In this document: positions 5,291 through 32,287 of the stretch, piece by piece | Position numbering within the stretch: position 1 is the first letter of the stretch | Layout of the letters: every line of letters begins with the position of its first letter | Notes under the pieces: model-generated | Seen by the model: only the letters and a program-made list of their open reading frames with translations | Told to the model about the DNA's origin: nothing | The model's database searches: none | Program-made: the position numbers and the translations under genes | Assembly: GCA_048886185.1 (NCBI GenBank) | Contig: JBHLKY010000001.1 | Location: 130,436-194,435, forward strand | Direction of reading: 5' to 3' | Length of the DNA stretch: 64,000 nucleotides | Source of the DNA: Candidatus Hermodarchaeota archaeon | Lineage (GTDB): Archaea > Asgardarchaeota > Heimdallarchaeia > Hodarchaeales > Hodarchaeaceae

Positions 5291-5668
5291 TTATTCAGGT
5301 GCTTTTTGATCTACTGGGCTTTTCTTAGTGGTTCCACGTTCTATCCCTACTAGAACTATTTTTAGCGATTTAGTATATTTTTTCAATGCTTTTCTCCCTT
5401 CACTAGTTATGTGGACAACAGTTCTGGGACGGACATTCACAAAAGTCTTTTCCTGTTCCACAAAACCTACAGAAACAAGTTTAGTTAAGTGACTATTTAA
5501 ATTTCCTGATGTTACACCTAGTCCTTTTTGTAATACACTAAAGGTGAGTGATGAATTGAGATGTAGTAATGTTAATATTCCTAATCGCACTGGTTCATGA
5601 ATGGTAGAATCCAGTCCTCCGAGTAGGTTTTCCAGATAAGCTGGATTCTCTTCCATTTCAATACTCAT
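5291..5668 (-). CDS. ArsR/winged-helix transcriptional regulator
   Basis: 'VRLGILTLL...FSVLQKGLGVTSGNLNSHLTKLVSVGFV' is an HTH plus wing pattern. The gene is coupled (6-nt gap) to the upstream membrane-protein gene. Confidence 0.55.
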   Translation of the reverse strand: MSIEMEENPAYLENLLGGLDSTIHEPVRLGILTLLHLNSSLTFSVLQKGLGVTSGNLNSHLTKLVSVGFVEQEKTFVNVRPRTVVHITSEGRKALKKYTKSLKIVLVGIERGTTKKSPVDQKAPE

Positions 5669-5673
5669 CTCTA

Positions 5674-6378
5674 CTATTCTGCAGTTTCTACTAGGGCAAT
5701 ACCTTCTCTACCAGAATACCAGTATGTAAGCATACTAATTCCAATTAAAACAAAGCCAAATATATTACAGAAAAGAAACATTGCTGAATTGGGGTCTAAC
5801 TCATAGAATATTAAAGATGAGACAAATCCAAGGCATAAAGCGAATAATCCAAATGATAACAAGCCTAATCGTACTTTCACATTTCTCGTTTCTGCAAAGA
5901 GAATTCTACTTGCAAGTAAAAATCCAATCCCTGTGGTGGTACCCCATACAATAGGAATAAACTGGGAATTCATTGAATCTACAACACCAAGCACCAAAAC
6001 AAGAAAATGAGTAATAATGAACAATCCAACAATGATTGCTCCAATGGTTCGATAAGCTTTGTTCCAATTTATGAATCCTGGGGAGAAACCTGTTGTAAAA
6101 ATAATGACACCAATCAGAGGAATAAGATAAATAAACCACAAGCCAAAAAATAGAACTGGTTCGAGATTTGGAGCTAATCCAAGAATGAGGAATGTTGAAT
6201 CAACAGCTAAGAAGTAGTAACAAACATATTCAATCCAGCCACCAATGATAGCTACGAAACCAGTAAGACTTATGAAAAGTAAAAGGCGATTTGATTCCAT
6301 TTTTTCTTCAAAAGCAACAATTTTATCTAAAATTTCAAGAGTTGGCTGTAAATCTGATAGTAACTCCATTTCTATCAT
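5674..6378 (-). CDS. polytopic membrane protein of unknown function (about 6 TM)
   Basis: Hydrophobic helices run throughout. It is co-oriented and coupled with the ArsR-like gene. Confidence 0.5.
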   Translation of the reverse strand: MIEMELLSDLQPTLEILDKIVAFEEKMESNRLLLFISLTGFVAIIGGWIEYVCYYFLAVDSTFLILGLAPNLEPVLFFGLWFIYLIPLIGVIIFTTGFSPGFINWNKAYRTIGAIIVGLFIITHFLVLVLGVVDSMNSQFIPIVWGTTTGIGFLLASRILFAETRNVKVRLGLLSFGLFALCLGFVSSLIFYELDPNSAMFLFCNIFGFVLIGISMLTYWYSGREGIALVETAE

Positions 6379-6609: not shown

Positions 6610-7221
6610 TTGAATGGTGTAATTGTTTTGATAATTGATTCTATTATTTTTATCTTCCCAGCATTCGTTGCAAATGCTGCACCTACGATATTAGGTAAAG
6701 GTAAGCGCTTCAATGGACCTATTGATGGTGGAAGATTGTGGAAAGACAACAAAAGAATTTTAGGAGATGGTAAAACGATCCGAGGATTTGTTTCTGGAGT
6801 TTTCTGCGGAATGTTGACATGTGTTGCGATCATTATTCTTGGAAACTATACTGGTTATCCTTTGGTTTTTATGACCTACATGAAAGGAGGCCTTCTTTAC
6901 AATGTTTTAAAGCCATTAGATACTGCTATTTTGGACAATATGATACTCTTAGGATCATTAATTGGTTTTCTTCTTGGTTGTGGCGCTCTCATTGGTGACA
7001 TAATTGGAAGTTTTATAAAAAGACGTAGTGGACTCAAAAGAGGAGAATCCTATCCTTTAATGGATCAATTAGGTTTTTTAGTTACAGCACTGATCCTTGT
7101 ATATTTAGTAATCCCTTGGCCTGTCATTTGGCTTATATTTCTGGTGCCTATCAGTCTTGGTCTTCATATCAGTCTAAATTTGCTAAGTTATGTAGCTGGT
7201 GTCCAAGAAGTCCCACTCTAA
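6610..7221 (+). CDS. carS: CDP-archaeol synthase-like (CarS/DUF46) membrane protein
   Basis: 203-aa membrane protein with 'ANAAPTILGKGKRFNGPIDGGRLWKDNKRILGDGKTIRGF', which resembles the CarS cytidylyltransferase signature. Confidence 0.5.
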   Translation: MNGVIVLIIDSIIFIFPAFVANAAPTILGKGKRFNGPIDGGRLWKDNKRILGDGKTIRGFVSGVFCGMLTCVAIIILGNYTGYPLVFMTYMKGGLLYNVLKPLDTAILDNMILLGSLIGFLLGCGALIGDIIGSFIKRRSGLKRGESYPLMDQLGFLVTALILVYLVIPWPVIWLIFLVPISLGLHISLNLLSYVAGVQEVPL

Positions 7222-7444
7222 TTAATTCTCTTGGATTAGTATAATTCAGGTTTTAAAAGCAGTAGGGAGGATGAAACTTTCTCAAGTTGTTTAAAGCAAT
7301 ACTAAATCACTCATACTATTTTTTATAATTTATATAGCTAATATAATATTTTGGTTAGTTTCTACCACAAAGTAATTTCTTGTAGAAAGGTTCATCGGGT
7401 TTTTTAAACTCATAGATTCAAATTCACCTATAATTTTCTCAAAA

Positions 7445-7882
7445 GTGGGTGAAAAGAAGATGAACTTTTTGGCACATCTGATAGTGACATTAGTCTTTGT
7501 GAAAATAGCTGATTTATCGGGAATGAATATCTTTTGGGCTTTAATGTTCGGGGTGTTTATTGATTTTGATCATTTAATTAAACTACCTCTTTATATCAAG
7601 CAGAATGGTTTTAAAATAGTTAGGTACTGGAATTGGCGAACAGGGTTCCAGGAACCTGTCTCATTGTTATGGATTATACCTTTGAATATTTACATTCATA
7701 CATGGGTACCTGTATTCTTTTTCATAACTCATATTGTCTTAGATTATTTGATGAGTTATGAAAAGCAACCATTTTACCCTTTCTCTAGTTTTACTATCAA
7801 ACAACGGAAAATAAAGCTTGATGATTCTCTTGGAATAGTAACAGTGGTGATAGCAATATGCATATACGTATTCCTGGTTTAA
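7445..7882 (+). CDS. small membrane protein (possible DUF457-like membrane hydrolase)
   Basis: 3-4 TM helices and an 'FIDFDHL' motif. Weak. Confidence 0.3.
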   Translation: MGEKKMNFLAHLIVTLVFVKIADLSGMNIFWALMFGVFIDFDHLIKLPLYIKQNGFKIVRYWNWRTGFQEPVSLLWIIPLNIYIHTWVPVFFFITHIVLDYLMSYEKQPFYPFSSFTIKQRKIKLDDSLGIVTVVIAICIYVFLV

Positions 7883-8409
7883 AGAAACGATATGACCAAA
7901 TAATGATGCCAATAAGCGATTTCTTTCATATGACTTTGAAGTTACAGCCAAATCACGTATCTTGTATTGGATTTTTGATTGGACTTTTTTCTGTGATTTT
8001 AGTCCTCGGCGGTTATTGGCAAGCTGGATTAATAATAATGGCAGTTTCCCTCCTTTTTGACGGAATCGATGGAAATATTGCACGATTATATAGTTTAGAA
8101 AGTGAAACAGGAGAAAAACTTGAACTTCTATTTGATCGTTCTCTAGAAACGCTCTTGTTTTTAGCCTTTGCAATAGTTAATGGCATTAATTTTGGATTAG
8201 TCTTCTTAGTTATTTATTCCATCTTGCTTATGACATCATTGAGAGATAAGGCGAAATTTGATCCTGGATTAAAGAGAATTGCATTATTTCTGGGATTTAT
8301 CATTAGTTTTGAGATGATTTTCAATATTGTCTTTCTTGTACACATCGGTTCTTTCATGCTTCAAATCATAATCTTAGATTATGCAAATCAGAGAGGAGTA
8401 GGGGTTTAA
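7858..8409 (+). CDS. CDP-alcohol phosphatidyltransferase
   Basis: 'DGIDGNIARLYSLESETGEKLELLFDRSLE' fits the D-G-x2-A-R-x8-G-x3-D-x3-D signature on a membrane protein. Confidence 0.6.
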   Translation: MHIRIPGLKKRYDQIMMPISDFFHMTLKLQPNHVSCIGFLIGLFSVILVLGGYWQAGLIIMAVSLLFDGIDGNIARLYSLESETGEKLELLFDRSLETLLFLAFAIVNGINFGLVFLVIYSILLMTSLRDKAKFDPGLKRIALFLGFIISFEMIFNIVFLVHIGSFMLQIIILDYANQRGVGV

Positions 8410-8612: not shown

Positions 8613-9929
8613 ATGAAAGATGAAATACTTGAGAATAAAGGGATTATTTTGAAAAATATTTCATTTAAGCACAAATTTTGCATATTTTTGATCGGCTTAT
8701 TGATTATTTGTATATTGAGTAGAATAAAAGAGAATCAGGGATTATTAAATTCGATAAGTTACTCTGATGGGGATTCTATATTTTGTAAATCATTAAATCC
8801 TAAAGTGACCGAACAAAATATCCCTGAAAGAGGATTTAACGATCATACTTATGAATTGATCCCGATTAGACGAAGTTGGTCAGCTGCTAGAGATGATTGT
8901 GAATCCCGGAGAGGACATTTAGTGACTATTACAAGCCAAGGAGAGAATAATATGGTAAGACACTTGATTGAATATGAAAGTGTTTGGATTGGTTTTACTG
9001 ATGAAGGAATTGAAGGGAGTTGGCGATGGATTACTGGGGAGTCTGTTACCTATATTAACTGGGCTGACGGCGAACCCAACGACAGTGGTGGTGAGGATTA
9101 CGTTGAACTTTACGAGAGTGGTGAATGGAATGATTTGTCTGGTTTAGAGGAGTTGTACTATATATGCGAATGGGATTCTACACACAATATAACAACTCCC
9201 ACAGTAATTTTCCCAAATGGGGGAGAAACTCTTGAAGGCATCATCAATGTTCTCTGGTCAGCATCAACCGATTCGTATGATCATCATGATGTCACCTATA
9301 AAGTTTCTTATTCCATCGATAATGGAGTTAATTGGAATCTAATAACTAAAGAAGTAGTTGCCACTAATTACGAATGGGATACCAGTACGATTCCTGAAGG
9401 AACTTCATTTCTGATCAAAGTAGTTGCAAAGTGTTCTCAAGGAAAAAATGTAGAGGATATCTCCGATGGTTCGTTTTTTGTGCATTATCTCACAAGGCTA
9501 ACGCTTCTGTCTCCTCATCAAGGTGATCGACTGAGAGGTATCAGTATTCTTAAATGGTCAGAATCAACTGATTCCTTAGGATATGCAGTCACATACTCAG
9601 TATTCTTTTCTATAGACAACGGGATGACCTGGGATTCATTAGTTACAGGGTTGATGACAAATAATTACAATTGGAATACATCAAAATTTGCTGATGGAAG
9701 ATATAAGATAAAAATTAGGACAATTAGTTCAGAGGGTCTAACTACTGAATACATTACTGAAGGGACATTTCTAATTGATAATATTCTAACAGATATTACA
9801 CTTATTGTACTTGGATTAGCACTCCTCATGATTTTTCCAGAATTGTTCTTCAGTAGAAAACTCAGCAACGTTCTTAGTCGTAAAAGAATAGAGATTGTTG
9901 AGAGAGAAGAAGGAGTGGGACAACCATGA
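8613..9929 (+). CDS. membrane-anchored C-type lectin domain protein with two tandem Ig/Fn3-like domains
   Basis: N-terminal TM; CTLD at about aa 82-187 ('WSAARDDCESRRGHLVTITS', 'WIGFTD', 'WADGEPND', 'EWNDLSG', 'YYICEW') with EPN (nt 9072-9080) and WND motifs; two beta-rich repeats of about 95 aa; C-terminal TM. Its stop overlaps the next start (ATGA at 9926-9929). Confidence 0.7.
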   Translation: MKDEILENKGIILKNISFKHKFCIFLIGLLIICILSRIKENQGLLNSISYSDGDSIFCKSLNPKVTEQNIPERGFNDHTYELIPIRRSWSAARDDCESRRGHLVTITSQGENNMVRHLIEYESVWIGFTDEGIEGSWRWITGESVTYINWADGEPNDSGGEDYVELYESGEWNDLSGLEELYYICEWDSTHNITTPTVIFPNGGETLEGIINVLWSASTDSYDHHDVTYKVSYSIDNGVNWNLITKEVVATNYEWDTSTIPEGTSFLIKVVAKCSQGKNVEDISDGSFFVHYLTRLTLLSPHQGDRLRGISILKWSESTDSLGYAVTYSVFFSIDNGMTWDSLVTGLMTNNYNWNTSKFADGRYKIKIRTISSEGLTTEYITEGTFLIDNILTDITLIVLGLALLMIFPELFFSRKLSNVLSRKRIEIVEREEGVGQP

Positions 9930-12900
9930 TTGAATCTGAAAAAAGAGCTAAGGAACTTGAAGAATTCACACCTATTGAACCAATATATCATGAAAATTTA
10001 ATTCGGAATTTGGTTCGATTTGCATCTTTGATAGTAATTGGACTTCTAGTAGGACAACCTGCACAAAACTATCTTCCAGAAATTTATCCAACCATATTAC
10101 ATCAGATGTTGGTCTTTACTCTTTTGATAGTTTTTCTCGTTGGGCTATTCTTTACATTTTCGCAGTTACGTTGGTTTAATGAAAAAAGAAACAAGTCAAC
10201 CAATTTAGGAGGGACTATGGGTTTATTTGGACTATTTCTAACACTCATTTGTAGTGTACTTTCATTGCTTACTGTTTCATCAGCAGTTCTTATCCCTCTA
10301 CTTGGTATAGGACTGTTTTTAACATTCTTAGGGTTCTTTATAGAGACAACTCGCATAGATGAACCATTGGTATATTGGTTCAGAATGAATCTGGAGGTTA
10401 TTATACGCTATTCGATAACGGGAACTGGAGCCTTTTTGATCAACTGGAGTGTATTAATGACAATTTTGCTCTTCTTGGGATATTCGGGTATATTACCACC
10501 TTTCTATGTCTGGCCTGGAGATTCAATTGGAGGATTATTATTAGGGAGTATTGGTTTGGTTCTTGTCTGGGGTTCTTGGTATCATAGAATCACTCAAACA
10601 CTCTGGAAATATCGGATTGAAATCATTAGAACAATCGAGTTAAGTATCAGTCAGGGTCTAATCCTCATAGCACTAATAGGTCCATTCTTAAATCCGGACT
10701 TTCTTCTATACAGCTCCATTTTAGGCATCGCAGGATTAGCAGTAATATATCTAGACCTATACATATTTAAAAAGAAGGTTTTTAGTAATTTTTCCAGCGG
10801 ATTTATATCCTCTAGTCAGGTTTATGCCTCTATCATTGGTCTAATCTTCATTCTTTATGGACTAATCTTGATTCAGCAGCCTAATTGGCGATATTTCACG
10901 ATCTATCTTTATGTAATGGGATGCTTGCTGCTCTACAGAGTCTGGTTTGATAAAACCAATTACACAATAAATCGTTCTGCTCAAATCTTCGTTTGGTTTT
11001 TCCGAACTCATTATAGAGAGGTTATTACCTCTTTTTGCTTTGTCTCTATGGCTTTAGGATCTTTTTTATTTGGATTCACAAGATTGTTTTTAAGAATTAA
11101 TGATTTTTTTGATCCTGTACCTTTAGGGTTATTTCTAGTTGGTTACGCAATTGGACTAGTGGTTTGGTATATTCCAAGTCGTCATACATACTATCGAGGT
11201 ATGACAACGTCGTTAAATTTCTATTTGTTGTTATGGGGAATTTTCCTTTTTATTTTCCTCTTGCAGATAGATTCTAATGATATGATACCTTATGTGATTT
11301 CAACTACAATGTTTGTTATGGGGATGAGTGTAAACGTATGGCTTTGGAAAAGAGAAATATACAATTCAACTAAAAATACACTTATCACAATAAAAAACAC
11401 AATTTTTCAAACAATTCATGTTGTTGCCCAGTTCTTCAAAACATATTACCGTGAATTATTAACTATTGGAATTCTAAGCCTTATAACATATGGACTTGTT
11501 GTAACGTGGAGTACAGTCATTCACCCTCCCTATTGGCCATTCTTGTTTTTGATAACTGGTTATGCTATGCTTTTAGCCATCTGGCGCTTTCCTAACCGTC
11601 ATGACTATTTTCGTGGAGTGACAACAACTCTTAGTACCGTAATGATCCTTTTTGGCTTAGTATTAGTATTTTTCCAGGATTATCAATCTATCATTTGGCT
11701 TTCTGGTGGAATAATCATTATTGGTGTTGTAGTCAATGGAGCAGCGTGGCAAACGGAACTTAAACTGCTATTAATTCAAACTGCTACTGCTATCAAGAAC
11801 GTAATTGTCCGAACTGGCGTAACATTGAGAAATTTCTTTATCACTGTTAAAAATGCATTTATCCAAACTATTCATGCTCTTATTCACTTTATCGATAAAT
11901 CCCTCCATACTATCTGGGACTATCGCGTTCCTCTCATGAGGTCGATCATGACAACTATTGGTGCAATTCTAGCCATCACAGGTTTTTTATCATGGATTTT
12001 AAATTACGTATTCGACATAACTTGGATCTCTGGTCTTGAACCTTCGTTCTTGATATCTGGTATGATCCTTCTTTATATAGCTTGGTTCTATCAAGTTAAC
12101 CAGATTGTTAAGCAATCCGCTATTGCTATTCGTAATGGACTTGTCCACGTTTTTCATATTATCGCGGACTTCCTTGTGGCCGCTAAGAATACTGTCATAG
12201 TTGTTTCTCACTATATCTGGGATCACCGTGTTGACATTTTAAGAGCTCTCGTAACAATGATTGGTATTGTTTTGATCTCTACTGGGATTATTCCAGCAGA
12301 TCTAATTGATATTGACTCAAATATGAAATTAGTATTAGTAATTGGAGGTATAATTGTATTGTATTTATCCTGGCTCCAACCAGTAAACCATTTCCTCATA
12401 AAAACCTTGATTGCAATTAAAAACTTCTTTGTTGCTGTTAAGGACGCCACTATCCAGTTTATTCAAACAGCTATCCAATTTCCTGTAAATACATATCGAA
12501 AAATAGTTAATTTTCTCCAAAAATACTATATTGAAATAATTCGCTATTCTGCTACAACTATTGGGGGCTTCTCCATTTTCTTTGGGTTTTGGGGAACATT
12601 GAGGCAGGAACCGTTTGGGCTACTCATTCTTATTGCAGGATTGGCTATCCTTTATGCTGCTTGGTTCCATCATGTCAATCAATTTATTATTAGAACAATC
12701 CAGTCCATAAAGGATGCCATAATCCACGCTGCTCACGCTATTGCTAATTTTCTCCAGAATGTCAAAAATGCAATTATGCGAACTTTTTCCGCAATTGGAT
12801 CTTTCATGCAAAAAATAGCAATCCAACTGAACCAATTACTCCGTTCTATTGTAGATTTAATTATCCCAATATTTCTTCTGATTTTGTCAATCTCGGCGCT

Positions 12901-13252
12901 TTTCTATGGTATCATTCTAATTTTGTCTGGAGTATTTGATCCGACTGGAGCTCTTTTTAGTGATCTTCTTCTTCCAATTCCTCTTTTTGGAGATCTTTTG
13001 GATTTTCTTGCTCGATTGCTTCAGGGAGAAATCTATGAAGGGAATATCCTAGGTGTTTTTGCTAATCAAGACCCCATATTTCAAATTCTGGTTGGTATAG
13101 GCATTATTATATTCGGTGGTGTTGTATTTTTATTTGTGGCGCTAAAGAAGGAGAAAATGAGAATTAGATCCCTTTTGAAGGCTGATGAAACGTATTCTCA
13201 AGCAACACTTGATAAAGAAGAGGTTAATGACCTTGATGGTGGTAAAAAGTGA
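9926..13252 (+). CDS. giant (1108 aa) polytopic membrane protein with about 5 internal repeat modules
   Basis: A soluble charged N-terminus is followed by more than 20 predicted TM helices. There are recurrent amphipathic modules '..AIKNxxVxxxxxxxNFFxxVKNAxIQTIHxxxxF..' (about 5 copies) and repeated 'W(Y/R)(I/F)P(S/N)RH(T/D)Y(Y/F)RG(M/V)TT' segments. It is translationally coupled on both sides. Confidence 0.6.
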   Translation: MIESEKRAKELEEFTPIEPIYHENLIRNLVRFASLIVIGLLVGQPAQNYLPEIYPTILHQMLVFTLLIVFLVGLFFTFSQLRWFNEKRNKSTNLGGTMGLFGLFLTLICSVLSLLTVSSAVLIPLLGIGLFLTFLGFFIETTRIDEPLVYWFRMNLEVIIRYSITGTGAFLINWSVLMTILLFLGYSGILPPFYVWPGDSIGGLLLGSIGLVLVWGSWYHRITQTLWKYRIEIIRTIELSISQGLILIALIGPFLNPDFLLYSSILGIAGLAVIYLDLYIFKKKVFSNFSSGFISSSQVYASIIGLIFILYGLILIQQPNWRYFTIYLYVMGCLLLYRVWFDKTNYTINRSAQIFVWFFRTHYREVITSFCFVSMALGSFLFGFTRLFLRINDFFDPVPLGLFLVGYAIGLVVWYIPSRHTYYRGMTTSLNFYLLLWGIFLFIFLLQIDSNDMIPYVISTTMFVMGMSVNVWLWKREIYNSTKNTLITIKNTIFQTIHVVAQFFKTYYRELLTIGILSLITYGLVVTWSTVIHPPYWPFLFLITGYAMLLAIWRFPNRHDYFRGVTTTLSTVMILFGLVLVFFQDYQSIIWLSGGIIIIGVVVNGAAWQTELKLLLIQTATAIKNVIVRTGVTLRNFFITVKNAFIQTIHALIHFIDKSLHTIWDYRVPLMRSIMTTIGAILAITGFLSWILNYVFDITWISGLEPSFLISGMILLYIAWFYQVNQIVKQSAIAIRNGLVHVFHIIADFLVAAKNTVIVVSHYIWDHRVDILRALVTMIGIVLISTGIIPADLIDIDSNMKLVLVIGGIIVLYLSWLQPVNHFLIKTLIAIKNFFVAVKDATIQFIQTAIQFPVNTYRKIVNFLQKYYIEIIRYSATTIGGFSIFFGFWGTLRQEPFGLLILIAGLAILYAAWFHHVNQFIIRTIQSIKDAIIHAAHAIANFLQNVKNAIMRTFSAIGSFMQKIAIQLNQLLRSIVDLIIPIFLLILSISALFYGIILILSGVFDPTGALFSDLLLPIPLFGDLLDFLARLLQGEIYEGNILGVFANQDPIFQILVGIGIIIFGGVVFLFVALKKEKMRIRSLLKADETYSQATLDKEEVNDLDGGKK

Positions 13253-14433
13253 CAGTTAATAGAAAGAGATCGAAAGAAAAATCAGATGATATAGCTAAAA
13301 TCCCAAACATCTCTCTCGATCAGGAGAAAGAAGCAAGGGGTAAACGTCTCCAGGAAGCATCATTTTCGGAACTTGTCTCATTTTCAAGATTTACACTAAT
13401 AGCAATCTGCATATTTATACTAGCTTTAATAATTTCAATTATTCTCCAATATAGCCCACTTGAAAACCCTGGACGATACGTAACTGGAATTATAGGGATT
13501 TCAATTCTTATCCTGCTCCTTAGTTTAATCGTTGATATTCTACGTTGGAGAGATTATACCGAATGGGGAGCTTTGGGAGCTTTAATCTCCTATGGTGGAA
13601 TTCTCCTAATTTTCATGCCACTTTCTCTCAATATGGTGATCCTGATCGAAGATGTTACTTTCCTGGTTCCATTCTTTGGAGAATTTAGCTTATATCTAAT
13701 AATCATTATTTTAGGTGTCGTCATTTTTACTATTGGATTCACTTCTAGAGCCACTGAACTTGACCACAAAATTGAAAACCTTCTCTTTATAATGAAGCAA
13801 TGGATAACTACATTTGCTTTTCGACAATTCTTTCGAACCCTTGGAGAGTTTATTCTAACATTTATTAGTGGATTTTTCAGGTATATTGGGAGGGGAATCC
13901 GAGAATTGAGAACTCGTATAGCAAGGCTTCTTAGATGGACAACACGATCTTTCATTTTCTTTTTAACCTCCATCAAGGATTTCTTTTACCATACCTTCCC
14001 CCAGATACTAAAACGATCATTGATCGGATTTTGGAACAATTTTCATTGGCTGGGATTAATTGCTGTTATCGTCTATGTTATTCTGACTGATATTCCTATT
14101 CCAAATATTGATCCTTTTCTTATCAAAGCAGAGCTACTTATTGTTATTGGTTTTTTCTTTTGTCTTGGGATCCTTTACCCTCAGAAAGACCGTTTTGCAC
14201 TAATTGCTAAGGGTATGAGGAGCTCTGTTCTTAGTAGAGTGATAAGTGCTTATAGTATGCTCTCAGGAACCAAAATAGAAATGGACAAAGCTATTTTCTG
14301 CTCTAGATGTCTTAGAGGGGTTGAAGTTAGAGAATTTGAATCCCTCATGGAAATTAAAGGGATGATAGATCCACCCTGCCCGTTTTGTGGATTTAATAGT
14401 TGGATTGGATCTGAAAAAGTGTCTATCCCTTAA
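13249..14433 (+). CDS. membrane protein with a C-terminal CxxC...CxxC zinc ribbon (GTG start)
   Basis: The GTG start overlaps the upstream TGA. There are multiple TM helices and a C-terminal 'CSRCLRGVEV...CPFCGF'. Confidence 0.5.
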   Translation: MTVNRKRSKEKSDDIAKIPNISLDQEKEARGKRLQEASFSELVSFSRFTLIAICIFILALIISIILQYSPLENPGRYVTGIIGISILILLLSLIVDILRWRDYTEWGALGALISYGGILLIFMPLSLNMVILIEDVTFLVPFFGEFSLYLIIIILGVVIFTIGFTSRATELDHKIENLLFIMKQWITTFAFRQFFRTLGEFILTFISGFFRYIGRGIRELRTRIARLLRWTTRSFIFFLTSIKDFFYHTFPQILKRSLIGFWNNFHWLGLIAVIVYVILTDIPIPNIDPFLIKAELLIVIGFFFCLGILYPQKDRFALIAKGMRSSVLSRVISAYSMLSGTKIEMDKAIFCSRCLRGVEVREFESLMEIKGMIDPPCPFCGFNSWIGSEKVSIP

Positions 14434-14535
14434 GACAAGCTTTTGCAAAAGGAGAAACTCGAAGTTCCCACTATTCCAAAACCTCATCCAAAAGAATCTA
14501 TTTCTCCTTCTGAAATAGTAATGACTGATGAATAG

Positions 14536-15948
14536 AAGAAAGCTATTAAAAAAGGTCACTTTCCTGATTATCAATCATATCAGCGGGCACAGAACCTCGG
14601 AGCACAGACTCACTCTGAAGTGGAGTTCATCGATCGCCTTGGGGCCCCGAATTTAGCTATAGCTGAAAAAATCAAAGCAGGGGGATTTTCTCATTTTGAA
14701 ACATACCAAAAAGCTCAGGCTGTTGGTGCTTCTACTGCCTCGGAATTATCTTTGATAACAGAATTGCAAGCTCCTGATTTAGCTACTATGAAAGAAATTC
14801 AGAAAGGTAAATTTCCTGATTTTCCATCTTATCAACGAACGTAGAATCTCGGAGCTTCAACCTATTACGAACTAGAAGTTATTGATCACCTTGGAGCCCC
14901 TAATTTTAAAACTGTTGAGAAAATTAAAAATGGAGGATTTCGTGATTATAAAAATTATGAGAAAGCTTTGGCGGTTGGAGCTTCCAATATATCTGAATTG
15001 CGTATAGTAAAAAAATTCAATGCTCCAGATCTGAGTACTGCGAGAAAAATTCAGAAAAGGAGATTTCCAGACTATCAAACGTTTAAACGAGCTCAGGATC
15101 TGGGAGTGCAAAAGTATTCTGATTTAAGAATCATTGATCGTTTTAAAGCTCCAGACCTTGAGACAGCGAAGAAAATCATTGATAGCGGTTTCTCTACTCT
15201 TGAAACTTATCAAAAAGCTCAAACTATTGGTGCTTCCACTTTCTCAGAATTAAAATTAATTGAAAAATTACAAGCTCCTGATTTAGCTACCACGAGAGAA
15301 ATTCAGAGCGGAAATTTCCCTGATTATCAAACCTATCGACAGGCACGAAGCCTTGGAGCACGAACTTACTCTGAACTACAGTTAATGACTAAACGACCAA
15401 CTATCAGTGCTGATGTTGAAGTACAATCTGCACAAGAAAAAATAAGCTCCAAGAGAGTGATAGAAGAGATTAGTGCGGAAGTAGGAACCCAGACATTGAT
15501 CACAAAGAAACTGCAAGACGAAAGATTATTCCCAATTGATGAAGAGGCAATCGAAGTTTCATCAAAGATTGAAGAGCCACAAAAAGAAGTACAGGTTTCT
15601 GTCCCTGACATAAGAGATGAATCACTTATCAGGAAAAGAGATGCTCCTGCTGAAGAAATACCAAGTACAGAACGAAAAATTTCGAAAAAAGAAGTTCCTG
15701 TAAAACAAGTAATCGAGATAATTGACGTATTCTTTGCTTCTGATTTGTTAGTAACATCAGAAACCCAAGATAAATGGGACATGCATAAAAAGGAGTATTA
15801 TCGTCAACGAACGTTATTCCTTGACTTTGGAGAGCTCAGTGAATCCTCCTTTAGGTCTTATCTTCAGAAATTGAGAATGTTTTTCACTCAGGAAATGGGT
15901 ATTCAACACGACAAATTATTCAAACTAGACGTAGAAGACACTGAATAA
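14536..15948 (+). pseudogene. 42-aa tandem-repeat protein gene interrupted by an in-frame TAG (no ATG start; possibly disrupted or non-canonical)
   Basis: One frame is open from 14536 to 15948 apart from TAG at 14842-14844, which replaces a conserved Gln of the repeat. The frame is continuous with upstream gene 13249-14433 across TAA 14431-33 and TAG 14533-35. There is no in-frame ATG before repeat 7. Confidence 0.4.
14560..15390 (+). repeat. about 6.6 copies of a 126-nt (42-aa) tandem repeat in perfect register
   Basis: Repeat units start at 14560, 14686, 14812, 14938, 15064, 15190 and 15316. Consensus is 'FPDYQTYxxAQxLGAxTYSELxLIxxLxAPDLxTAKKIQxGx'. Confidence 0.8.
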
Positions 15949-21190: not shown

Positions 21191-22699
21191 ATGAAATCCT
21201 CATTCAATAATAAAATGGATCTCAATGATGAAACCAAGGCATTTTTTAACTTTATTACGCATCCAACTAAATTAGAATCATTAATCATGTTAGAACAGCT
21301 TATTAAAGACACTAAGGATGAAAATCTAAGATGTTTCTGGAAAATACTTTCAGATAAAAATCTAGAATGTTTTAGACTTACATGTAAAGAAAATAATACA
21401 TCTAAGGAAGTATATTATATTGATCTTGAAACTCCGATATTATTTTATCCTGTATTCCAGAATCACATCTCTTTAAATATTGCCTCGAATTTTTTTTCTC
21501 TAGCGAGTAAAATTAAGTCAAATTTATTGAATTTCTATAGTCAAGAAGTCGAAAGTTCTTTTATTTTAATAAAAAAAGGTACAACTGAAAAATTGGTTGA
21601 TTCTTATACTTTTAAAGTAGAAGATCAGGATATCAAATTGTTACAAAGGTCTAATCTTTATAGATCTAGGAGAAAAGAAATATCCCAAAAGAATTTAGAC
21701 AATTTTCTTAAGAATAACGAGTCTATGTTAAATAATAGATTAAAAAAAGACGAAGGGGTTTATGCTTCGCTTGGAGATCATTTGTTATTTAAATCAGATA
21801 GTTTAAATCTTCAAAATGGCAAAAAGCGCTTTCCTGTTGGTCAACGAAACCCCAAAAATCGCTTGAATCTGTTAACGGGGAGAGAATGGATAAAATTTTC
21901 TAAAACATGGTTTATTCATCGTCCTCCATCACGAAAAGATGAAGAATTTTTACATCCTGCTAAATTCCCTGAGACACTTATTAGAAAGTTTATCACCTTT
22001 TTTACAAAACCAGGTGAATTAGTGCTAGATCCATTTCTTGGTACTGGAAGCGCGCTCATCGCTGCTAAACAGAGCAACAGGAGTGGAGTGGGAATTGAAC
22101 TCTCTCCTACTTACGCTAAAATTTCTAAAAACCGTTTAAAAGGAATAAATTCTCTATTATATCCCCCTTTATACCAAACTGATGAATCATGCTTTTGGAA
22201 GGTTATTTGTGGAGATTCTAGGAATTTAAATGACTACTGGGAGGATTTTAATTTACCAACTGTTGATTTTTGTATCACGAGCCCTCCTTATTGGAATCAG
22301 CTCCAACGAAATACTATTCGACAAAGGAAACGAAAACATGAGGGCTTAGATACACAATATAGTTATGATGATCCAAAGGATTTAGGGAACATTGATAATT
22401 ATAACAACTTCCTAAGTGAACAACAGAAAATATTTGGTAATGTTTACGAAATTCTACGACCTAATGGATACTTAGTCATAATCACAAATCATGTTTTTAC
22501 AGATGGACAGGTTTATCCCTTAGCTTATGACACAGTATCTAGTTTAATTAATGATAAAAAACATAATTGGATACAAAAAGATGAAAAAATATGGTTACAA
22601 GATGATAAGTCCTTGGTGGCATTAGGGGTAAATTATGCTTGGGTTGGAAATAGGTGCCACCAGTATTGTCTTATTCTAAGAAAAGAAGTATCAAACTAG
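21191..22699 (+). CDS. DNA methyltransferase (N4-C/N6-A, SPPY type) with a 240-aa N-terminal domain of unknown function
   Basis: 'HPAKFPETLIRKFITFFTKPGELVLDPFLGTGSALIAA' (AdoMet motif I region) precedes 'ITSPPYWN' (motif IV) by about 80 aa. This is a permuted order relative to beta-class enzymes. No adjacent nuclease gene. Confidence 0.7.
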   Translation: MKSSFNNKMDLNDETKAFFNFITHPTKLESLIMLEQLIKDTKDENLRCFWKILSDKNLECFRLTCKENNTSKEVYYIDLETPILFYPVFQNHISLNIASNFFSLASKIKSNLLNFYSQEVESSFILIKKGTTEKLVDSYTFKVEDQDIKLLQRSNLYRSRRKEISQKNLDNFLKNNESMLNNRLKKDEGVYASLGDHLLFKSDSLNLQNGKKRFPVGQRNPKNRLNLLTGREWIKFSKTWFIHRPPSRKDEEFLHPAKFPETLIRKFITFFTKPGELVLDPFLGTGSALIAAKQSNRSGVGIELSPTYAKISKNRLKGINSLLYPPLYQTDESCFWKVICGDSRNLNDYWEDFNLPTVDFCITSPPYWNQLQRNTIRQRKRKHEGLDTQYSYDDPKDLGNIDNYNNFLSEQQKIFGNVYEILRPNGYLVIITNHVFTDGQVYPLAYDTVSSLINDKKHNWIQKDEKIWLQDDKSLVALGVNYAWVGNRCHQYCLILRKEVSN

Positions 22700-29986: not shown

Positions 29987-32287
29987 TTGAGAGATTCAAA
30001 GTGCTATACTGAAGAGGAAATTTTAGCAGCTTTAACAAATGCTGTTGATGAGGTTGAAGTCTACACTAGGAAAATTGGCTTTGAAAAGTTTGAACAACCC
30101 CTTGGGTTCTTTTTTGCTCGGGTTTTGGATAATAAAATTACTCGATCTGAGAAAAGAGGAAAAGAACTTAAAACAGCAATTATAAGAGGTGCTGCGTTCA
30201 TTGTAGTAATTCAAATTCTGATATATACTGTGTTATTAAAAGAGGATTCTAAAAGCAGTTTAATTAATACAATACATGATTCTAAACATCTACAATCTTA
30301 TTTTGATGAAATTGAAAACGAAAAGAATTTTGGAGCTATCTTTAATGCTAGGATTGTTGAATTACTTCCTAAAGAATCAGCTGTGACTCTAAATCACGTT
30401 TTTCAATCATTTATCTCTTTTAATAAGTCGCAGTTCACTTCTGATATTCTTGGGAAAATTTTCCATGGATTAATCCCCTTTGAGCTGAGGAAATTTCTTG
30501 CTGCATATTATACCTCAAACGTTGTTGGAGGATTTCTATCATATTTAGCAATAAAAAACGACCAAGTTAAAATCATGGATCCAGCTTGTGGTTCTGGGAC
30601 TCTATTAGTGAGCGCTTATAAGCGAATCATAGAGATCAATAGAAATCTGGATCATAATCAAATTTTACGGAATATCTATGGAGTTGATGTTTCAGCATTT
30701 GCAGCTCAGCTTGCTGCAATTAATCTTGCGATTCAAAAACCTACTGATTCCTGGAACACTTGTAATATTGCCATTCTTGACTTTTTTAGATTAGAAATCG
30801 GAGATAAGGTAGTAGGTTTTAAAGTCCCCAAATTTGATGTTTTTATTGGAAATCCCCCATTTACTCGTGGTGATCGATTAGATAGTGAGTATAAGGACTT
30901 CTTACAAAATCATCTTCTTCATAAAGGAATTTCCTTTGATTATAATAAAAAATATTTGGGTTTATATGCATATTTTCTTCTAGATTCTTTAAGATTCTTG
31001 AAAGCGGAAGGAATCCTTGCTTTTATTCTTCCTCTTTCATTAATTAACTCTTTCACAATGAAACCTGTTCTGAAGTTTTTGATGTCAAAATTTCTCTTTA
31101 TTTACATTATTACATCAGAAGCTCAAATTACTTTTTCAGAGCAGTGCTCATTTAAAGAGATTCTCTTGATTGCCCAAAAAGGGAGAAAGAAGAGTTTTGG
31201 AACTAAATTCGTCACATTAAAAAAGGAATTAACAGATACTAATTATCGAAAAATAGCTGAAACAATAGAAAAGACTACGAAAAATTATGAAGACACAAAT
31301 ATACGAATTAGAACTATTTCAACAAAGACTCTGAAAGAAACTCTAAAAATGAACTGGATTGTATATTTTTACAATAGTAAATTCATCACCATTTTTGATC
31401 AGATAAGACGGTCCGATACGATTTCTCTAGTAAACGAAATAGTTGAAAATCCTCGGTATGATGTGGATCGGGGACTCCGTGCTGGAATTTCTGATTTCTT
31501 TTATCTCCCCAATAAATTCTGGAAAATTGTTGATACATCGAATAATGGGATTAAAATAAAGAATATTAGAGACAGTTCTATTCTAAATCTGTCTTCTAAA
31601 TATCTTGCACCTGTGTTAAGAAAATCTTCTCACTGTAGATGTGTTATTCCAGAATCTTCTGACTATATTGTCGTAATTCCTGATAAAAATGAAAAGGAAA
31701 AAGATGTTGATAATTATATCAAGTGGGCTGTTCAGAAGTTCCAAAAAACAGGATTTGAATCACTAACATTCAGGCATATCAGTCAAAAACGCAAAATTGC
31801 TAGAGTAGCAATCACTCATAAGCTTAGTCTTATAAGTAGTAAGATTATCACTTATTACTCCCCAAAGCCCATTGTTTTAACTGATAATTTTATCTTCATT
31901 AGAACTTTTAATAAAGAGAACGACAAAATTCTAGCTGCTTACTTGAATAGCTCAATATTTCTCTTAACTTATCTTATTCTACGTCGAGAGAAAAGTGGTG
32001 CTCTTGGCCAAATATTTGGTACTGATGTGAGGAATTTCTTTTGTTTGGATCCCCGAAAGGTGAGTTATTCTGACCGATTAGAGCTTATTAAGTTATTTGA
32101 TCATTTTATTAAGGAATCAAGCTTTTTTCCCTCTTTTCGTGAACAGATTAACAAAGCGAAAGAGGAGAGGGATAACATTAGATTTCTACTGGATGAAAAG
32201 ATCTGTGAGACACTTGGAATCAAAGATATTCCACTGTTCTTGAAACAACTTTATGAAACATTAATTGAGGAATTGAAGAAGTTTTAA
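29987..32287 (+). CDS. gamma-class N6-adenine DNA methyltransferase (Eco57I/TaqI-like), TTG start
   Basis: 'LAAYYTSNVVGGFL', motif I 'MDPACGSGTLLVSA', motif IV 'FIGNPPFTRGD', and a roughly 450-aa C-terminal target-recognition region. The first in-frame ATG lies inside motif I, so the start must be non-ATG. Confidence 0.75.
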   Translation: MRDSKCYTEEEILAALTNAVDEVEVYTRKIGFEKFEQPLGFFFARVLDNKITRSEKRGKELKTAIIRGAAFIVVIQILIYTVLLKEDSKSSLINTIHDSKHLQSYFDEIENEKNFGAIFNARIVELLPKESAVTLNHVFQSFISFNKSQFTSDILGKIFHGLIPFELRKFLAAYYTSNVVGGFLSYLAIKNDQVKIMDPACGSGTLLVSAYKRIIEINRNLDHNQILRNIYGVDVSAFAAQLAAINLAIQKPTDSWNTCNIAILDFFRLEIGDKVVGFKVPKFDVFIGNPPFTRGDRLDSEYKDFLQNHLLHKGISFDYNKKYLGLYAYFLLDSLRFLKAEGILAFILPLSLINSFTMKPVLKFLMSKFLFIYIITSEAQITFSEQCSFKEILLIAQKGRKKSFGTKFVTLKKELTDTNYRKIAETIEKTTKNYEDTNIRIRTISTKTLKETLKMNWIVYFYNSKFITIFDQIRRSDTISLVNEIVENPRYDVDRGLRAGISDFFYLPNKFWKIVDTSNNGIKIKNIRDSSILNLSSKYLAPVLRKSSHCRCVIPESSDYIVVIPDKNEKEKDVDNYIKWAVQKFQKTGFESLTFRHISQKRKIARVAITHKLSLISSKIITYYSPKPIVLTDNFIFIRTFNKENDKILAAYLNSSIFLLTYLILRREKSGALGQIFGTDVRNFFCLDPRKVSYSDRLELIKLFDHFIKESSFFPSFREQINKAKEERDNIRFLLDEKICETLGIKDIPLFLKQLYETLIEELKKF

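Follow-up and report, generated by a model that had tools for sequence, protein, structure and literature searches.

The gene at positions 8613 to 9929 of a 64,000-nucleotide stretch of contig JBHLKY010000001.1 from Candidatus Hermodarchaeota archaeon (the whole stretch being referred to hereafter as the window) encodes a protein with a C-type lectin-like domain (CTLD). At a probability of roughly two in three, the protein is taken to sit on the surface of a Heimdall-group (Hodarchaeales-like) Asgard archaeon, to bind glycans there in a Ca2+-dependent manner as a receptor or adhesin, and to be the exchangeable first subunit of a lineage-specific three-gene membrane operon. An N-terminal signal or anchor segment would export the central part of the protein, and a canonical C-type carbohydrate-recognition domain (CRD) would form its membrane-distal head. 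Two Asp-box Fn3-like domains would serve as a stalk that projects this head from the membrane, in which the protein would be held by a C-terminal transmembrane (TM) helix and a conserved tail (PE[LF][YF], then basic residues, then EEGV). The features of the gene, given with the evidence by which each was placed, are as follows, with residues (aa) numbered along the open reading frame (ORF).

8613 to 9929, forward strand: surface CTLD protein, whole gene, 438 aa (ORF list).
8664 to 8738, forward strand: N-terminal hydrophobic helix, aa 18-42, after a K-rich stretch (Kyte-Doolittle hydropathy >2.0; helix in the AlphaFold2, AF2, model).
8829 to 9176, forward strand: CTLD, aa 73-188, with its N-terminal beta-hairpin included (Pfam Lectin_C, AF2, Foldseek).
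9000 to 9014, forward strand: D130 to E134 in TDEGIEG, candidate ligands of Ca site 1 (sequence register).
9072 to 9080, forward strand: EPN (E154-P-N156), followed by D157, E161 and D162; predicted Ca site 2 and sugar ligands (sequence).
9126 to 9134, forward strand: WND (W172-N173-D174), predicted Ca site 2 ligands (sequence).
9180 to 9488, forward strand: stalk repeat 1, aa 190-292, an Fn3-like beta-sandwich with Asp-box SIDNGVNW (AF2 all-beta, predicted local distance difference test, pLDDT, >90).
9489 to 9788, forward strand: stalk repeat 2, aa 293-392, with Asp-box SIDNGMTW (AF2, internal repeat).
9795 to 9926, forward strand: C-terminal TM helix, aa 395-417, and basic cytoplasmic tail ending in EEGV (hydropathy; AF2 helix at 395-432).

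By profile and by predicted fold, the domain is a bona fide CTLD. The interval 8856-9173, in which the initial annotation had described an essentially complete CTLD signature, corresponds in frame to residues 82-187 of the 438-aa ORF and lies inside the CTLD. All four elements of that signature were located there, with WIGF at 125, EPN at 154-156, WND at 172-174 and YICEW at 183-187. The Pfam Lectin_C profile (PF00059) was matched with an E-value of 3.1e-21 and 76.6 bits, against a gathering cutoff of 22.6, over profile positions 3-106 of 107. A phmmer search of the PDB returned 175 chains at E ≤ 0.01 (including DEC-205, PLA2R, MRC2, SP-D, CD23 and MBP-A), and all of the 60 matches listed were C-type lectin domains.

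An AF2 model of the protein was built from 53 homologues and reached an overall pLDDT of 84.9. Within the CTLD the pLDDT was mostly >90 (10-residue block means of 92-97 across aa 81-190), and helices were placed at aa 89-98 and 109-119. When this predicted structure was compared with the PDB by using Foldseek, the CTLD of aggrecan (1tdq_B) superposed with a root-mean-square deviation (rmsd) of 0.9 Å and a template modeling score (TMt) of 0.88. The lectin domains of CD23, SP-D, MGL and SRCL also superposed, at 30-36% identity, with all matches falling within an rmsd of 0.9-1.4 Å and a TMt of 0.80-0.90. The alignments spanned 115-125 columns of CRDs that are 126-135 residues long; given that they cover essentially the whole of each target, the long-loop region is present in the model. 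The Lectin_C search and the superposition on C-type lectin CRDs, both of which had been proposed as checks on the initial annotation, therefore bear out its domain assignment.

Residue conservation was assessed by using column assignments from a hidden Markov model (HMM) alignment of 1,051 related domains, with the cysteine columns also taken from PDB alignments to MRC2 and DEC-205. The 78 domains scoring ≥100 bits against the window CTLD were treated as close, and the distant set contained 891. Both predicted Ca sites are complete, with D130, E134, D157 and D162 at site 1 and E154, N156, E161, N173 and D174 at site 2, so that the Ca-site residues to which the initial annotation had pointed are all present. 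On the basis of motif register and established knowledge, we take D130 and E134 to correspond to the site 1 ligands D161 and E165 of rat MBP-A. The site 2 set presumably corresponds, on the same basis, to E185, N187, E193, N205 and D206 of MBP-A, and the loop from EPN to the conserved Glu is presumably one residue shorter than in MBP-A.

The columns of D130 and E134 were occupied by D and E in all 29 of the Asgard-labelled domains tabulated, 22 of which had the Ca-ligand pattern DEDED. EPN and WND were likewise present in nearly all of the 29, with QPD, NPD or PPD (and WSD in two QPD paralogues) as the exceptions. Among the close domains, EPN was found in 69 of 78, QPD in 4 and WND in 73. The EPN motif sets mannose-type specificity, and the exchange of EPN and QPD is the mannose-to-galactose switch of animal lectins. 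Among the Asgard paralogues, EPN is replaced by QPD, NPD or PPD in P0006, P0007, domain 1 of P0010, domain 1 of P0200 and domains 1 and 2 of P0242. WND is also replaced, by WSD, in the QPD paralogues P0006 and P0010 (domain 1), with the other Ca ligands largely kept. Changes at the specificity-setting motif among these paralogues suggest that sugar binding is under selection, and that sugar recognition is real and diversified. Because all of the collectin ligands of Ca sites 1 and 2 are kept, in an EPN/WND configuration, the expected ligands are mannose, glucose, N-acetylglucosamine (GlcNAc) and fucose. The head would bind such sugars, which have equatorial 3- and 4-OH groups, via the calcium of site 2.

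Two of the four canonical cysteines are kept, C1 as C96 and C4 as C185, and the C2 column holds Y163, in agreement with the initial annotation. The retained pair occupies the columns of the whole-domain disulfide, which would join helix alpha1 to strand beta5. That annotation had also given C3 as replaced by S/G, of which the glycine stands (G177 occupies the C3 column) and the serine does not, S176 being only its neighbour. C1 was kept in 77 of the 78 close domains. The C2 column was Y, H or F in 76 of them and Cys in one only, and the C2-C3 pair was lost in 77. In the distant set, C2 and C3 were kept together in 589 domains and lost together in 267 of the 891. Given that the two are kept or lost together, the missing C2-C3 disulfide is best understood as a coupled trait of a sequence group, and not as a defect of this gene. 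As judged from these alignments, its loss is a recurrent variant in the family and no ground for exclusion from it, and the disulfide is dispensable in a large subgroup. In the proposed head, Tyr and Gly stand where animal CTLDs have the C2-C3 staple of the long loop, as throughout the group of close relatives, all of them from anaerobes.

Not every domain of this fold binds sugars, and the CTLD could in principle be a non-lectin scaffold, that is a protein-, mineral- or ice-binding or structural head, as in natural killer receptors, lithostathine and type II antifreeze protein. The missing C2-C3 disulfide fits such a head, and the good Foldseek matches include the Ca-independent type II antifreeze protein (2zib) and lithostathine (1qdd). 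However, non-lectin CTLDs typically lack Ca-site ligands, whereas the window CTLD has all nine, conserved across its paralogues. In addition, the sole frequent change is the classical EPN/QPD specificity switch, and fusions to muramidase and to dockerin/RicinB in the group point to carbohydrate targeting. A non-lectin head is thus considered unlikely.

Animal Ca2+-dependent CRDs (rat MBP-A, SP-D, CD23, CTLD2 of MRC2/Endo180, and SRCL) belong to the same Pfam family as the window CTLD and have the same fold. The WIGx core, EPN, WND, the full ligand sets of Ca sites 1 and 2 and the C1-C4 positions are common to both, as is a type I membrane layout with a lectin head on a stalk. The animal CRDs differ in having the C2-C3 disulfide, where the window CTLD has Y163 and G177. 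Their partner domains are collagen/neck coiled-coil, FnII, ricin, EGF and CCP, in place of Asp-box Fn3-like repeats, and, unlike them, the window CTLD is encoded in a prokaryotic operon.

To collect relatives, 1.84 billion cluster representatives were searched exhaustively with HMMER, and 38,028 proteins were found at E ≤ 1e-3. Ranking by summed score favours multi-CTLD animal proteins and giant bacterial proteins, and domains were therefore rescored individually. The bit scores against the window CTLD were as follows.

110-163 bits: Asgard CTLDs (Hodarchaeales, Heimdall and Thor metagenome-assembled genomes, MAGs), from per-domain rescoring.
110-118 bits: a 328-aa metagenomic family without taxon label.
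91-106 bits: Solidesulfovibrio alcoholivorans and Clostridia MAGs.
45-70 bits: Myxococcota, Planctomycetota, Verrucomicrobiota and cyanobacteria.
33-70 bits: animal and Diplonema CTLDs (amphioxus, sea urchin, feather star, human).

The description of the domain as eukaryote-type in the initial annotation is contradicted by these scores, in which the nearest relatives are prokaryotic and the animal domains rank like those of Myxococcota and Planctomycetota. The companion statement that CTLDs are rare outside eukaryotes reflects older knowledge and was likewise overturned. When GTDB species genomes were searched for six peptide words of the window CTLD, 42 loci were found in bacteria of many lineages; this search missed the window's own genome and other Asgards, and is unusable for counting archaeal occurrences. 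Full-length orthologues of the CTLD protein share 61-67% identity, and both these and looser relatives come, where labelled, from Hodarchaeota, Hodarchaeales, Kariarchaeaceae, Hermodarchaeota or Thorarchaeota MAGs.

A neighbor-joining (NJ) tree was calculated from 120 columns with Kimura distances and 100 bootstraps; the tree is crude, its sampled eukaryotic domains are all animal, and only its coarse result was used. In 90 of the 100 bootstraps, ≥90% of the Asgard domains were in one cluster, with at most 8 non-Asgard and 0 eukaryotic sequences inside. The sampled eukaryotic domains were monophyletic in 12 of 100, and the window CTLD did not join its nearest neighbour, P0002. Taken by sequence, the window CTLD is a member of a prokaryotic group, and eukaryotic CTLDs are no nearer to it than many bacterial ones. 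By the same measure, a coherent, disulfide-poor CTLD group with intact predicted Ca and sugar sites exists in Heimdall-group Asgards and anaerobic bacteria. Within this group the window CTLD is 50-67% identical to Asgard-labelled members and 41-52% identical to the best bacterial ones. Members of the group have in common that C2 and C3 are lost, the C2 position being aromatic, and that the domain serves as a mobile unit in proteins that are secreted or displayed at the surface. The architecture of the window protein (one CTLD, two stalk repeats and a PE[LF][YF]/EEGV anchor), together with its operon position, is specific to a few Hodarchaeales-like genomes, whereas other members of the group have PGF-CTERM-like or plain TM anchors, dockerin, SLH or PEP-CTERM.

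These comparisons also bear on whether the gene could have come from a eukaryote, either as contamination of the MAG or by recent transfer. Every matching solved structure is eukaryotic, as such a source would lead one to expect. The nearest domains, however, are Asgard and then bacterial (91-163 bits, against ≤70 for animals), and the Asgard cluster of the NJ tree holds no eukaryotic sequence in 90 of 100 bootstraps. The GC content of the 8-10 kb block is 0.343, compared with 0.30-0.38 across the window. The gene overlaps the next one by 4 nt in the style of bacterial and archaeal operons, and at least two other Asgard assemblies keep its synteny with flanking housekeeping genes. An archaeal origin is further supported by the CDP-archaeol synthase gene that the window contains and by the labels that GenBank gives to the contig and to the identical protein, and a eukaryotic source is considered very improbable.

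C-type lectin folds in archaea are known from the context of diversity-generating retroelements (DGRs), namely from AvpA of Nanoarchaeota (PMC5006420, PMC4372165). DGR variable proteins were the only archaeal C-type-lectin-fold proteins in the literature found (PMC5006420), and the CTLD could accordingly be read as the variable target of a DGR. This reading is hardly credible and was rejected, given that blastn of the CTLD DNA against the 64-kb window found no template repeat (best off-target match 20 nt, E = 0.07). No CTLD paralogue was found in the window by tblastn or blastn. No reverse-transcriptase domain was found in the CTLD neighbours or in the ten largest other ORFs of the 21-60 kb region, smaller ORFs lying outside that scan. 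A match to Pfam Lectin_C together with intact Ca sites is not a feature of DGR targets, and the C-terminal part of the CTLD is conserved between orthologues instead of hypervariable. The DGR variable proteins Mtd, TvpA and AvpA are of the same fold class only distantly. They are without Ca sites, WIGx, EPN and WND and, unlike the window CTLD, need a template repeat and a reverse transcriptase. A literature search found no description of the Asgard CTLD group, of its EPN/QPD variation or of a head-swapping operon; nor did it find a paper that deals with canonical CTLDs of Asgards or other prokaryotes, or a member of the group that had been studied experimentally.

The order of elements in the protein is N-terminal signal or anchor, CTLD, two Fn3-like repeats, TM helix and tail. 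The helix at aa 18-42 is a signal peptide or a signal anchor, and, if it is not cleaved off as a signal peptide, the CTLD is flanked by a hydrophobic segment on either side. The distribution of charges points to an extracellular location for the central part of the protein. Residues 41-69 form a low-confidence linker in the AF2 model. The initial annotation had described a TM-anchored protein in which the CTLD is followed by two Ig/Fn3-like repeats. The repeats hold, in that homologous stalks match Pfam fn3 in 10 of 53 relatives and Tissue_fac in 9 of 53, and the order has to be amended by the N-terminal anchor that precedes the CTLD.

The gene model itself requires revision at this end. The GenBank entry (P0001) is 404 aa long and is already labelled as a C-type lectin domain protein. 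It begins at TTG 8715, which is residue 35 of the ORF, and so cuts off the K-rich and hydrophobic N-terminal segment (window 8613-8717). In the orthologous loci L001 and L002, a similar K-rich and hydrophobic N-terminus is encoded 5' of the annotated starts, and for this reason the ORF beginning at ATG 8613 is the better gene model. The deposited starts of all three genes are probably too short, hiding the putative signal or anchor sequence.

The two stalk repeats are homologous to each other (local BLOSUM62 score of 180 over ~98 aa), with an Asp-box SIDNGxxW in each, and repeat 1 gave weak Pfam matches to Reelin_subrepeat-B and BNR. The C-terminal TM helix ends in a conserved P-E-[LFV]-[YF], and the basic cytoplasmic tail comprises 21 residues and is rich in R and K. 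An NCBIfam scan of the protein gave no specific family and no sorting signal, its partial match being to the CTLD region of a polycystin model. The C-terminus does not look like an archaeosortase (PGF-CTERM-type) signal, in that the helix closes on its inner side with PELFF and is followed by the 21-residue tail, whereas the related CTLD proteins P0011, P0012, P0020 and P0112 do have (S/T)PGFE followed by a TM segment and basic residues.

Stalk domains of this type were also seen in another setting. In P0071, P0072, P0075, P0078, P0084 and P0088, all from Hodarchaeota MAGs, an Asp-box Fn3-like stalk domain lies outside the cell, followed by one TM segment and a cytoplasmic winged-helix DNA-binding domain. 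The order in P0072 is signal, stalk domain, TM and helix-turn-helix (HTH), and such proteins are candidate transmembrane transcription regulators.

The CTLD gene opens an operon, for which the following neighbouring features were recorded.

9926 to 13252, forward strand: gene 2, encoding a 1,108-aa all-helical polytopic membrane protein, the start of which overlaps the CTLD gene stop (ATGA).
13249 to 15948, forward strand: gene 3, with a multi-TM N-terminus, a zinc ribbon and ~45-aa tandem repeats, overlapping gene 2 (GTGA).
5291 to 5668, reverse strand: HTH_34/ArsR-like regulator, divergent, next to the operon in related loci.
5674 to 6378, reverse strand: 234-aa multi-TM protein, divergent, next to the operon in related loci.

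The gene 2 product had no Pfam or NCBIfam match. Polytopic proteins of this operon are 1,100-1,290 aa in length, and of the 17 homologues all of the taxon-labelled ones are from Hodarchaeales, Heimdall or Promethearchaeota. Its AF2 model, from a 16-sequence alignment, was poor (pLDDT of 55, predicted template modeling score, pTM, of 0.25). Gene 3 is homologous to a continuous 1,364-aa ORF in L002, which adds coiled-coil repeats and C-terminal zinc ribbons. In the window it contains three in-frame stops (TAA at 14431, TAG at 14533 and TAG at 14842) and no frameshift; when aligned with L002, the second stop falls on a Tyr and the last on a Gln. Gene 3 could be decaying or split here, or the stops could be read through or have arisen as an artefact of sequencing.

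Gene 2 was compared across eleven loci, the window and ten related ones, among them L001, L002 and L046-L052 (L048 and L049 carry the same polytopic protein). Wherever the flank is visible, gene 2 is followed by gene 3, and the divergent HTH_34 regulator and a multi-TM protein of ~230 aa lie upstream, this pair being found with the operon in all ten of the related loci. The order of CTLD gene and then gene 2 is also found in L001 and L002. The first gene encodes a CTLD with two stalk repeats in the window, L001 and L002, a CTLD with a beta-helix in L050, and a beta-helix alone in L046 (complete genome CP070695.1). A first gene is absent from six of the eleven, among them L047, L048, L049, L051 and L052. 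In the product of the beta-helix-headed first gene, the Asp-box stalk repeats are those of the window protein, and so is the C-terminus, '...IIPEVYFGRRLSKALSRKSEEGVSQI', which also occurs in P0008 and P0242; the anchor and tail recur in orthologues of the window protein as well. Because the beta-helix version shares both stalk and C-terminus, the stalk, TM helix and tail are understood as a conserved chassis on which the head can be exchanged.

The comparison extends to the beta-helix (NosD-like) proteins of L046, L050, P0008 and P0242, which have the stalk type, the PE[LFV]Y TM segment and the EEGV tail of the window protein. Their genes occupy the same operon position and overlap the polytopic-protein gene. 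The head is a right-handed beta-helix in L046 and P0008 or a CTLD with a beta-helix in L050 (one Lectin_C match) and P0242 (two CTLDs), and there are four stalk repeats as opposed to two in the window protein. With its Asp-box Fn3-like domains, PE[LFV][YF], EEGV and overlap with gene 2, the window protein has every feature of the stalk-TM-EEGV family as defined here. Extracellular recognition would be set by the type of head (CTLD, CTLD with beta-helix, or beta-helix), whereas docking of the CTLD protein to the polytopic protein and the zinc-ribbon repeat protein would probably be the part of its conserved TM helix and tail.

Two features of the surrounding loci were noted in addition. In the window, positions 6610-8409 between the divergent pair and the CTLD gene hold the CDP-archaeol synthase (CarS), a 145-aa ORF and a CDP-alcohol phosphatidyltransferase. 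L001, L002, L046 and L050-L052 are without this insertion and have a Thiamine_BP gene nearby, which indicates local rearrangement. In L047 (3414-3806) and L048 (1007-1573), genes for small Arf/Ras/Roc-family GTPases lie a few kb upstream of the polytopic-protein operon, each adjoining the gene of a 391-aa protein without family match.

With regard to the ligand, the fusion partners of the closest CTLDs are informative. Heimdall, Hod and Thor MAGs encode such CTLDs in one protein with GH25 muramidase, amidase and SH3. In Clostridia the partners are RicinB and dockerin (six CTLDs with RicinB and dockerin in a cellulosome-type protein), and in a deltaproteobacterium the partner is a trypsin-like protease. 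In these predicted architectures the CTLD takes the place of a carbohydrate-targeting module. Based upon these partners, binding to the glycans of neighbouring bacteria or to extracellular polysaccharide is the most plausible role. The ligand on a neighbouring cell would be a glycan or GlcNAc of the peptidoglycan type.

One of these architectures is described here in its own right. The P0196 cluster (P0245-P0250; Heimdall, Hod, Thor and Promethearchaeota MAGs) stands for an 830-aa Asgard protein with a GH25 muramidase, two EPN-type CTLDs of the group described here, an amidase, SH3 domains and a C-terminal TM segment. The CTLDs sit where cell-wall-binding modules usually sit, and the protein resembles a surface-anchored peptidoglycan hydrolase. 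Given that the host archaea have no peptidoglycan, it presumably acts on bacteria.

A related account of the window protein would keep the lectin mechanism and change only its physiological role. The CTLD would then be a substrate-capture module for polysaccharide feeding that is independent of the downstream genes, and not a receptor for cell-cell recognition or signalling. Bacterial relatives do carry the CTLD in cellulosome-type proteins and beside hydrolase domains, and the polytopic-protein loci L047, L048, L049, L051 and L052 are without the first gene. On the other hand, no glycoside hydrolase was found in the immediate window neighbourhood of the CTLD gene. A functional link is favoured by the translational coupling within the operon and by the conserved anchor and tail that beta-helix-headed paralogues in this position have in common with the window protein. 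Feeding alone is therefore regarded as an improbable role, and a surface receptor or adhesin that belongs to the membrane operon remains the favoured interpretation.

Several points weigh against this interpretation. Many animal CTLDs with good sequence scores bind no sugar, and a literature search for biochemical data on prokaryotic Lectin_C proteins found none. The geometry of the long loop could be altered by the loss of its C2-C3 disulfide, and the AF2 model contains no Ca2+ ions. The argument for coupling to the operon partners consists of synteny and the conserved tail. The putative complex does not need the first gene, given that L047, L048, L049, L051 and L052 are without it, and the in-frame stops of gene 3 mean that the module may be decaying in this genome.

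The domain itself is textbook and the protein is already so named in GenBank, so that the finding as first stated is ordinary, and unsurprising given the prokaryotic spread of CTLDs. Its interest is that the CTLD in these archaea is one of several interchangeable heads on a conserved chassis, opening an operon of two large uncharacterised membrane proteins. A well-formed lectin on an Asgard surface is relevant to studies of Asgard cell-cell interaction. If lectin activity and coupling were shown, the system would provide a molecular handle on how Asgards recognise neighbouring cells, with a bearing on syntrophy and on models of eukaryogenesis. There is no sign that eukaryotic CTLDs descend specifically from Asgard CTLDs. 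A broader proposal starts from the placement of Hodarchaeales-type Asgards as the group nearest to eukaryotes. Their cells would carry canonical Ca2+-dependent C-type lectin heads on a modular surface receptor, which would belong to a lineage-specific membrane complex and recognise the glycans of bacterial partners. This would make it a prokaryotic counterpart, and possibly an ancestor, of eukaryotic lectin receptors of the mannose-receptor kind. The proposal is speculative and quite unlikely; if it were true, lectin-mediated partner capture would predate eukaryotes.

Scans of the 64-kb window for tRNA genes and Rfam families gave no match. Elsewhere in the window, positions 21191-48962 are dense in DNA methyltransferase and restriction-modification genes and may be a defence or mobile island. 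Matches to N6_N4_Mtase were found at 21191, 32323 and 36245, and N6_Mtase/Eco57I-type matches at 29987 and 47010. The lowest GC content of the window (0.296) was recorded at 20-22 kb.

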